The notes under the pieces are model-generated. The model worked only from the letters and a program-made list of their open reading frames with translations, had not been told where the DNA came from and ran no database searches. Made by a program: the position numbers and the translations under genes. Positions 62,866 to 63,398 of a stretch of 64,000 nt of DNA are shown in pieces; position 1 is the stretch's first letter, and the number at the start of each line of letters is the position of its first letter. The stretch is taken from contig JANLYX010000018.1 in NCBI GenBank assembly GCA_031365865.1, positions 6,859 to 70,858 of the forward strand, given 5' to 3'. Source of the stretch: Hyphomicrobium sp. (lineage in GTDB: Bacteria; Pseudomonadota; Alphaproteobacteria; Rhizobiales; Hyphomicrobiaceae).

Positions 62866-62916
62866 CGTCATCCCCGCGCCGCTTGCCAGAGGCAAGCGGA
62901 TCCGGCGGCGGGGATC
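62866..62916 (+). repeat. CGTC-tagged REP-like element, copy 1
   Basis: CGTCATCCCCGC-GCCGCTTGCC-AGA-GGCAAGCGG-ATCCGGCG-GCGGGGATC. Confidence 0.8.
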
Positions 62917-63014
62917 CACGCAGGCTTCCGCATGCATGGATCGTAGGCTAGCCGCGGTGTCGCTGCATTTGAAGCACGCTCGGATGCCAGGGCCTTGTAC
63001 GGCCGGAGTGCACG

Positions 63015-63398
63015 ATGCCACGCTTCTCGACTCCGATCCTTGTTATTACCGGCCTACCATCGATTGCGTGGATGCTCTGGATCATTTATCTGCAGCTGAG
63101 ATACGGGCACCCAGAAAAGGCCGGTCGCGCCGCAATGATTGGTGTACTCGCGGGCTTTGTCCCGACCTGCGGACTTCGACTCGCGAAGTTGTGCTGGTCG
63201 CTTCGAAAGCGGCTTCAAGCTGGTCTCGGCTCTGGGTCCGAGCAAGCACCAGATGCAGCGCCACCGCGCCAAGCCCTCGTGCTGTGCAGTGCGGACGCTT
63301 GTCTAGATCCCGTGCGCCGGATCCGCTCGCTTTGGGCGAGCGGCCACGGGATGACGTTGGTCGCACCAAGGGACAAGCGGGTATTAGATCTTGTCTGA
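63015..63398 (+). CDS. possible small membrane protein between the inverted REP copies
   Basis: Two hydrophobic stretches near the N-terminus; the 3' end runs into REP copy 2; no homologue recognised. Confidence 0.3.
   Translation: MPRFSTPILVITGLPSIAWMLWIIYLQLRYGHPEKAGRAAMIGVLAGFVPTCGLRLAKLCWSLRKRLQAGLGSGSEQAPDAAPPRQALVLCSADACLDPVRRIRSLWASGHGMTLVAPRDKRVLDLV
63306..63356 (-). repeat. CGTC-tagged REP-like element, copy 2 (inverted)
   Basis: Reverse complement is 40/51 identical to copy 1. Confidence 0.8.

Follow-up and report, generated by a model that had tools for sequence, protein, structure and literature searches.

A probable gene-less inverted doublet of long-form CGTC-tagged hairpins at the ileS-lspA junction of a Hyphomicrobium genome

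We analysed a stretch of 64,000 nucleotides from Hyphomicrobium sp. (hereafter the window; contig JANLYX010000018.1 of assembly GCA_031365865.1, C75:6859-70858 in the labels used here, from a genome of 3.23 Mb in 97 contigs), in which an inverted pair of hairpin repeats, REP_L (62866..62916, plus strand) and REP_R (63306..63356, minus strand), lies between ileS (isoleucyl-tRNA synthetase) and lspA (signal peptidase II). The element is probably a gene-less inverted doublet, with its tags outward, of a long-form class that belongs with both the CGTC-tagged repetitive extragenic palindromic (REP) sequences and the Ssn-related motifs (SRMs). It is largely an already explained kind of element, and it departs from the published definitions by its nested loop and its arms of 140 nt. 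Labels beginning with C denote contigs of the window's own genome, those with G other genomes, those with L loci and those with P proteins; positions without a label are those of the window.

REP_L was delimited by its sequence, its fold, a covariance model (R1, 67.1 bits) and a 19-copy alignment, and it consists of a CGTC tag, an 8-bp outer stem starting with AT, a nested 7-bp inner hairpin, a C and a CA tail (a long-form CGTC-REP/Ssn-related motif of stem subtype CCCCGCG). This 51-nt unit, CGTCATCCCCGCGCCGCTTGCCAGAGGCAAGCGGATCCGGCGGCGGGGATC, recurs as an imperfect reverse complement in REP_R (stem subtype CCCGTGG/CGCACGG; R1, 62.4 bits; placed by the identity matrix). The two copies are identical at 40 of 51 positions and differ at positions 10-12, 19, 23, 24, 26, 29 and 43-45. 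The pairs 10-45, 11-44, 12-43 and 19-29 are altered on both sides yet still complementary, positions 23, 24 and 26 belong to the loop, and at least four compensated pairs would be expected from eleven random substitutions with a P value of about 3.5e-5. Both copies fold (REP_L, -31.3 kcal/mol; REP_R, -27.7 kcal/mol; z about -3) into the 8-bp outer stem, a small internal loop and the 7-bp inner hairpin. A first-pass annotation of this DNA had reported the inverted 51-bp pair with its identity, its 11 differences and its four compensated pairs, and the coordinates and counts were confirmed; its placing of the three remaining differences in or at the loop also stood, but its inverted repeat of 51 nt proved too short. 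Positions 62854-62990 pair with 63232-63368 at 74-76% over about 140 nt per arm, and therefore the unique interior is only about 215-240 nt and not the cargo of about 390 bp that had been described.

The two hairpins are structure-conserved members of a dispersed family with a directional tag. A search with nhmmer from a 16-copy seed found 31 copies in the window's own genome, and the covariance-model search that the first-pass annotation had proposed, carried out with R1 (19 copies), found 30. Inverted pairs of 180-265 bp whose CGTC tags point outward account for most copies, one pair measures 446 bp, and the window pair is the longest at 498 bp. There are at least 10 inverted tags-outward pairs in this genome; all pairs are intergenic and none lies within a long open reading frame (ORF), and 5 of 11 start no more than 11 nt from a stop codon. 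In the 19-copy alignment the outer stem was paired in 92.8% of cells and 6 of its 8 pairs had changed on both sides, while none of 500 shuffles reached the observed covariation score and sliding the partner destroyed the signal. The stem starts AT, with T-A in 19 of 19 copies and A-T in 9 of 19, and the invariant columns include G2, T3, C4 and C51, the last being the C directly after the palindrome. The 3' tail is CCA after REP_L and CTA after REP_R, with a family consensus of CCAG. What the outer stem encloses varies: a 4-nt loop (C67), a single nested hairpin (the form seen in the window) or two of them. The canonical short form of the family (8-bp stem, 4-nt loop) is found at C67:6371 and C67:6810, and behind each long-form copy the conserved arm continues for about 85 nt. 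These results bear out the earlier proposals that the element is selected for structure and that it is a REPIN-like inverted doublet (REPIN, REP doublet forming hairpins), its outward tags being those of most pairs of the family. Across the genus, R1 detected the family in 49 of 61 genomes, with strong long-form matches in about a dozen. The flanks of 10 pairs held no direct repeat, that is, no target-site duplication, and blastn searches with the element returned only other hairpin copies and no transposase-bearing relative.

Hairpin repeats in this genome also occur in other arrangements. BIME-like clusters (BIME, bacterial interspersed mosaic element) of 4-6 hairpin copies occupy C46:145-680 and C80:33678-34187; at C80, the right arms of the two 190-bp doublets are identical, pointing to local duplication in the recent past. 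A further subtype, TGTCATCCCGG(C/A)C, numbers roughly 40 copies, most of them in doublets of about 130 bp. At a contig end, C60:1-160 is a tandem array of at least eight units of the 20-nt repeat CGTCATCCCGGAATTCCATC, each unit made up of a CGTC tag and the palindrome GGAATTCC.

Both long arms are of the C type. The left arm (62854..63005, plus strand), which contains REP_L and was delimited by inverted repeats, alignment and blastn, has a homologue in the arm at C46:267-411 (75% over 147 nt by blastn). The right arm (63219..63368, minus strand), which contains REP_R and was delimited by blastn and by its inverted repeat with the left arm, matches metagenome locus L121 (81% over 138 nt) and C46:290-407 (84% over 119 nt). 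In the identity matrix the nearest relative of REP_R is C46:353-406, at 93%, whereas REP_L is only 76% identical. Because REP_R is closer to this copy than to REP_L, we read the compensated swaps as family-level covariation, that is, as two stem subtypes of one structure-conserved family joined in a heterodimer, and not as co-evolution of a pair in place. In-place inverted duplication of the left arm was considered as the main origin and rejected, since the right arm resembles C46 and L121 (81-93%) more closely than it does the left arm (74-76%); one observation, the complementarity of 9 of the 12 bases flanking the pair beyond the tags, favours such a duplication.

Next, we compared the element with known repeat systems. 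The CGTC-tagged REPs carry an unpaired CGTC or TGTC tag, an 8-9-bp stem starting with AT, a 4-5-nt loop and a CCA tail; they predominate in Alphaproteobacteria, are mostly inverted dimers (including heterodimers) located mostly just downstream of genes, and have no associated transposase, with no tyrosine transposase gene flanked by them in any species (PMC3733652). The window hairpins resemble this super-family (Di Nocera, De Gregorio, Rocco 2013, BMC Genomics 14:522) in their tag, their AT-start stem and their CCA tail, and also in being dispersed, multi-copy, intergenic inverted heterodimers without a transposase. They differ in the loop, which is described as 4-5 nt and is here a nested 7-bp hairpin with a 6-nt internal loop, outside the described form. 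Hyphomicrobium has 0 occurrences in the main text of PMC3733652. [quoted passage not shown]

A closer parallel is found in Neisseria, where small single-domain GIY-YIG genes (ssn) have the hairpin NTS (CGTCATTCCCGCGMAVGCGGGAATCYRG) and related SRM hairpins on their flanks (PMC11893778). SsnA of Neisseria meningitidis binds the hairpin only as single-stranded DNA (ssDNA) and on one strand only, and its cut falls a few nucleotides upstream; cleavage depends most on the three bases preceding the palindrome and binding on the C just after it, and Chenal et al. remarked on the resemblance of the SRM to insertion sequences and to REPs with their associated tyrosine transposases (RAYTs) (PMC11893778). 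The Hyphomicrobium hairpins share with NTS and the SRMs (Chenal et al. 2025, Nat Commun 16:2388) the CGTC tag, the AT-start palindrome, the C after it and a CCAG-like tail, as well as the flanking of small single-domain GIY-YIG genes and the occurrence of gene-less dispersed copies, often as inverted pairs. The short form at C67, CGTCATCCCCGCGCAGGCGGGGATCCA, is nearly identical to NTS, and the window hairpins keep the upstream GTC and the C after the palindrome, with G2, T3, C4 and C51 equivalent to the positions critical for SsnA (PMC11893778). They differ in that a nested hairpin and an internal loop take the place of the loop of at most 5 nt, giving 51 nt in total, in that they bear conserved extensions of about 85 nt, and in that one free-living alphaproteobacterium has eight Ssn-like paralogues together with at least five hairpin subtypes.

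The hairpin family is associated with Ssn-like genes. The window's own genome carries ten small GIY-YIG genes (Pfam GIY-YIG, 36-63 bits), and eight of them are Ssn-like, encoding one-domain proteins of about 95-125 aa with the common motifs GFTxKYG, LVYYE and W.R.WK..LIE..NP.W. Inverted CGTC/TGTC hairpins flank six or seven of the eight, and the stem subtype differs from gene to gene. The window's long-form subtype flanks the Ssn-like gene at C97:27232-27567 (hairpins at 27153+, 27664+ and 27841-), and orthologues of this gene (77-80%) in G006 and G036 occupy 543-bp cassettes that the same long-form hairpins delimit. The flanking of its gene by these hairpins makes the C97 protein the most likely cognate enzyme; its residues Y9, Y20 and E67 appear to be spaced like the catalytic Y6, Y17 and E64 of SsnA (PMC11893778). 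The genome holds six ssn-like GIY-YIG cassettes (C97:27153-27841, C67:6371-6810, C80:47731-48114, C96:1732-2239, C37:10277-10697 and C67:76976-77444), each of which has a CGTC/TGTC hairpin subtype of its own at its ends; the ssn-like copy at C67:77067-77378 has an in-frame TAA. We also looked for an ssn remnant inside the window element, using tblastn and a profile of the eight Ssn-like proteins, and obtained only noise with negative bit scores; a decayed ssn gene was thus rejected as the source of the interior.

Several observations weigh against this class assignment and against the pairing with C97. The published SRM pattern, HGTCWYN(0-2)YYVSBRHN(0-5)WNVSBRGN(0-2)RNCYNB, has no match in 62800-63450 and is not enriched in the window's own genome (15 matches, versus 14 in a reversed-sequence control); the window hairpins miss it because their loop is too long, and the pattern is a search heuristic and not a biochemical definition. 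The Ssn-like GIY-YIG proteins, putative members of cd10448 (the Ssn clade), had no relative in the PDB and no specific NCBIfam model. The genomes G007, G062 and G039 are rich in long-form hairpins and have only 59-70% relatives of C97; enzyme and hairpin are therefore not paired one-to-one, and the number of hairpins follows the closeness of the best C97-type homologue only imperfectly, in a comparison where many genomes of the genus are incomplete metagenome-assembled genomes. The pairing of two C-type arms is itself atypical, as C46 and L121 pair a C-type arm with a different, two-hairpin arm. Finally, the cutting of ssDNA by Ssn and its effect on transformation have, to our knowledge, been shown in Neisseria only, and we know of no demonstration that Ssn spreads repeats.

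The window insert is specific to its lineage. The gap between ileS and lspA was 70 nt or less in 60 of 75 relatives, the lspA start often overlapping the ileS stop, and it was expanded in the other 15; the comparison with relatives that the first-pass annotation had recommended thus upheld its description of an insertion into a normally tight junction. In the window, ileS (59508..62861, plus strand, from the ORF list) ends in the stop codon TGA at 62859-62861, and the C terminus of IleS is native, agreeing with relatives (for example, L067, ...AMREIDAGGVA*). The N terminus of LspA, MTMTSQTVWLWG, encoded at 63426..63950 (plus strand, from the ORF list), corresponds to the MA..RQTWLWG of relatives whose lspA start overlaps the ileS stop. 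The 69 nt of residual spacer 5' of lspA (63357..63425, no strand assigned, read from the sequence) contain no Shine-Dalgarno-like motif and no sigma-70-like promoter that we could recognise, and a scan of the ileS-lspA spacer for promoters and terminators recognised neither.

Other occupants are present at the same junction elsewhere in the genus. In the sister lineage L002 (214-979) and in G007 (L092, G007:C16:15800-17120), a small ORF is followed by a PIN-domain gene (PF01850, 38.6 bits); this module looks like a toxin-antitoxin type, and G007 has one more ORF upstream. The junctions L094-L097 (G006, G009, G013 and G008) carry inverted, G/C-rich CCCCTCCCC/GGGGAGGGG repeat pairs about 100 bp apart, and these CCCCTCCCC...GGGGAGGGG pairs represent a third kind of occupant. 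Other CGTC/TGTC hairpins are found at the junction in L004, L056, L059, L068 and G012. On a tree of IleS and LspA the five hairpin-bearing junctions need five separate changes, and the junction is therefore a recurrent landing site.

The ORF inside the element is the truncated N-terminal half of a rare four-helix membrane-protein gene. The frame of 127 codons at 63015-63398 stays open through the right arm and has a GGAG 6 nt 5' of its ATG. Its product had no match in Pfam, NCBIfam or a word-indexed protein search, and its GC content at third codon positions (GC3) is 0.60-0.62, versus 0.73-0.76 in ileS, lspA and ribF. On these grounds the ORF could have been taken as wholly non-coding, a reading that was overturned for residues 1-68 by an exhaustive phmmer search against 1.84 billion representatives: residues 2-68 match five clusters of 124-193-aa proteins (E values from 7e-16 to 1e-4, 38-61% identity), the best match being P0001 (E value = 7e-16, 61% over residues 2-68; tblastn, 59% over P0001 residues 4-71). 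The homologues measure about 130 aa and have four hydrophobic helices plus a conserved block at the C terminus, VPFG...LWYAER. The first 68 residues of the ORF keep the invariant residues of the family, but helices 3-4 and the C-terminal block are missing, and homology is lost after about residue 68, exactly where the right arm starts (the arm that matches L121 at 81%). The remainder is translated repeat arm, and P0005, wrongly called as a protein elsewhere, is this same arm. Since the frame beyond residue 68 or so is read from the right arm, the gene is truncated, its 5' half of about 68 codons with two predicted transmembrane (TM) helices spanning 63015..63218 on the plus strand (phmmer and tblastn). 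The first-pass annotation had seen a possible two-TM ORF here and had suggested a homology search; the search supports a membrane protein over residues 1-68 and found no homology beyond, so that the ORF is not an intact gene.

The membrane-protein family has no counterpart in Pfam or PHROGs and is rare, occurring in 4 of 401 genomes of the taxonomic family. In relatives the gene never lies at the ileS-lspA junction but elsewhere, and one member sits among Dam, MT-A70 and helix-turn-helix genes. The only other Hyphomicrobium copy, G017:C4:2412493-2412868 (L126, L128), consists of two overlapping fragments, apparently frameshifted, and is 160 kb from the ileS-lspA of that genome. By eye, an integrase N terminus seemed to stand beside P0001 in L117; it had no Pfam match, and we do not claim it. 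The interior DNA of the window element had no match in 30 relatives, in 400 genomes of the taxonomic family or elsewhere in its own genome.

How the gene fragment came to lie between the arms, and whether it is still expressed as a protein, can each be explained in another way. The two C-type arms could have carried the fragment into the junction as a composite, cargo-bearing mobile unit of 0.5 kb, as the first-pass annotation had held in describing a cargo-carrying element. The size of 498 bp and the tags-outward layout do match the ssn cassettes of 384-543 bp, and the arms are dispersed modules present in other genomes. We nevertheless consider such a unit unlikely: the interior is without a match in those 400 genomes and in the rest of its own, around the full-length homologues elsewhere the 700 bp beyond each gene end are free of tagged hairpins, and the break in the gene coincides exactly with the inner end of the right arm, as disruption in place would give. 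The 127-codon frame might, in turn, be a live small chimeric membrane protein with two TM helices and an arm-derived tail, and the open frame, the GGAG 6 nt from the ATG and the preserved invariant residues speak for this. The lack of helices 3-4 and of the C-terminal block, a tail that is the translated arm (called as an ORF in P0005 as well), the low GC3 relative to the neighbouring genes and the likewise split, apparently frameshifted copy in G017 make it quite improbable, and we recommend that the ORF be annotated as a truncated gene.

Two further explanations concern the hairpins themselves. The first-pass annotation had regarded CGTC palindromes as substrates of RAYT-type HUH transposases, which would make the element a REPIN-type doublet mobilised by a RAYT (HUH/Y1). 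A RAYT-like gene does exist in this genome, and doublets without target-site duplications are what HUH transposition would give; the inverted doublet of structure-conserved, 5'-tagged hairpins, its non-autonomous nature and the single-copy enzyme gene flanked by the same hairpins likewise resemble REPIN-RAYT systems (REPtrons). However, the search for a cognate RAYT led away from this explanation. The only RAYT-like gene (207 aa, C65:46336-47050, positions 1060-1900 of L001; PF01797, 37 bits; NF047646, 73.8 bits, just below the cut-off of 80) is inserted between proB and proA, and exact inverted copies of the 27-nt palindrome GGTGTCTGACCCTCCGGGTCTGACACC, of which the genome has about 12, bracket it. 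This palindrome, GGTGTC(A/T)GACCC..GGGTC(A/T)GACACC, is unrelated to the window hairpins; no CGTCATCC occurs in the 3.2-kb C65 RAYT locus and no CGTC tag within 1.2 kb, whereas it is the Ssn-like genes that carry tagged hairpins. The C65 gene and its palindrome form a separate REP/RAYT-type system in the same genome. The window tag is CGTC and not GTAG, the candidate enzyme is a GIY-YIG nuclease and not a Y1/HUH transposase, the doublets measure 180-500 bp versus about 70-110 bp, and the published survey found no tyrosine transposase gene with CGTC-repeat flanks (PMC3733652). The window hairpins thus have no RAYT link, mobilisation by a RAYT is highly unlikely, and such elements should not be attributed to RAYTs in annotation. 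It is just as improbable that the pair is a fixed regulatory RNA (an attenuator, terminator or processing site) controlling lspA relative to ileS. The structure would be transcribed if the two genes are co-transcribed, and the whole 523-nt region can form a single long, imperfect hairpin (-145.8 kcal/mol, z -6.6), but the insert is absent from relatives, including the sister lineage, the hairpin has 30 copies in the genome, and the locus has neither a T-run terminator nor, in a scan of 62000-64000 at E values up to 1, any Rfam match. A side effect on mRNA stability or translational uncoupling is possible and would be secondary.

Taking the element as a gene-less doublet of the long-form class, we infer a mode of spread, a cleavage by the C97 enzyme, an order of events and a possible effect on ileS-lspA expression. 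By analogy with SsnA, the hairpins would form in ssDNA, either during replication or on DNA taken up or transferred single-stranded, and a small GIY-YIG nuclease of the Ssn family would bind them and cut a few nucleotides 5' of the tag. The predicted cut sites lie beside the ileS stop codon on the plus strand and beside 63357-63368 on the minus strand, so that each strand of the locus would carry one cleavable site. The doublet may be a non-autonomous passenger of the C97 Ssn system that entered the normally overlapping ileS/lspA junction in the window's lineage. The accessory membrane-protein gene was most likely already at the junction; the arms would have come later, the right arm truncating the gene. 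What lies between the two arms now is the decayed 5' half of this rare accessory gene. If ileS and lspA are co-transcribed, the insert would remove the translational coupling seen in relatives and add a strong RNA structure.

Other repeats were observed in and near ileS. At 61119-61260, an inverted G/C-rich pair (ccccttgtgggggaggg ... ccctccccacaagggggaggggg) is translated in frame, forming an IleS loop between WFIAMD and NAPTLRQ whose length varies among relatives; L045 has a tandem EGRGNDAS repeat there. In the ribF-ileS spacer (about 59233-59507), the translations of short ORFs read ...PPSPKGEG... and ...APSPEGEG..., suggesting further copies of the GGGGAGGGG-type repeat upstream of ileS.

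The role of Ssn proteins outside Neisseria, and whether they cause the expansion of their hairpin repeats, are open questions (PMC11893778). The genome analysed here is a compact natural test case for them, with eight Ssn-like paralogues, at least five flanking hairpin subtypes and gene-less doublets of several sizes. Its nested-stem form escapes the published SRM pattern, and pattern-based surveys therefore undercount the system. The ileS-lspA junction provides a dated series of independent arrivals in one genus, and it shows that doublets can sit within an essential operon, beside a decaying accessory gene. We suggest tentatively, as a rather doubtful extension of the class assignment, that the Ssn nucleases of Hyphomicrobium also drive the spread of their hairpins, each paralogue and its subtype forming a GIY-YIG pair comparable to a REPIN and its RAYT. 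If this is true, doublets would preferentially insert a few nucleotides 3' of stop codons, the ileS/lspA overlap would be a site of repeated landing (at least five independent arrivals), and the arms could trap or truncate neighbouring accessory genes, as in the window.

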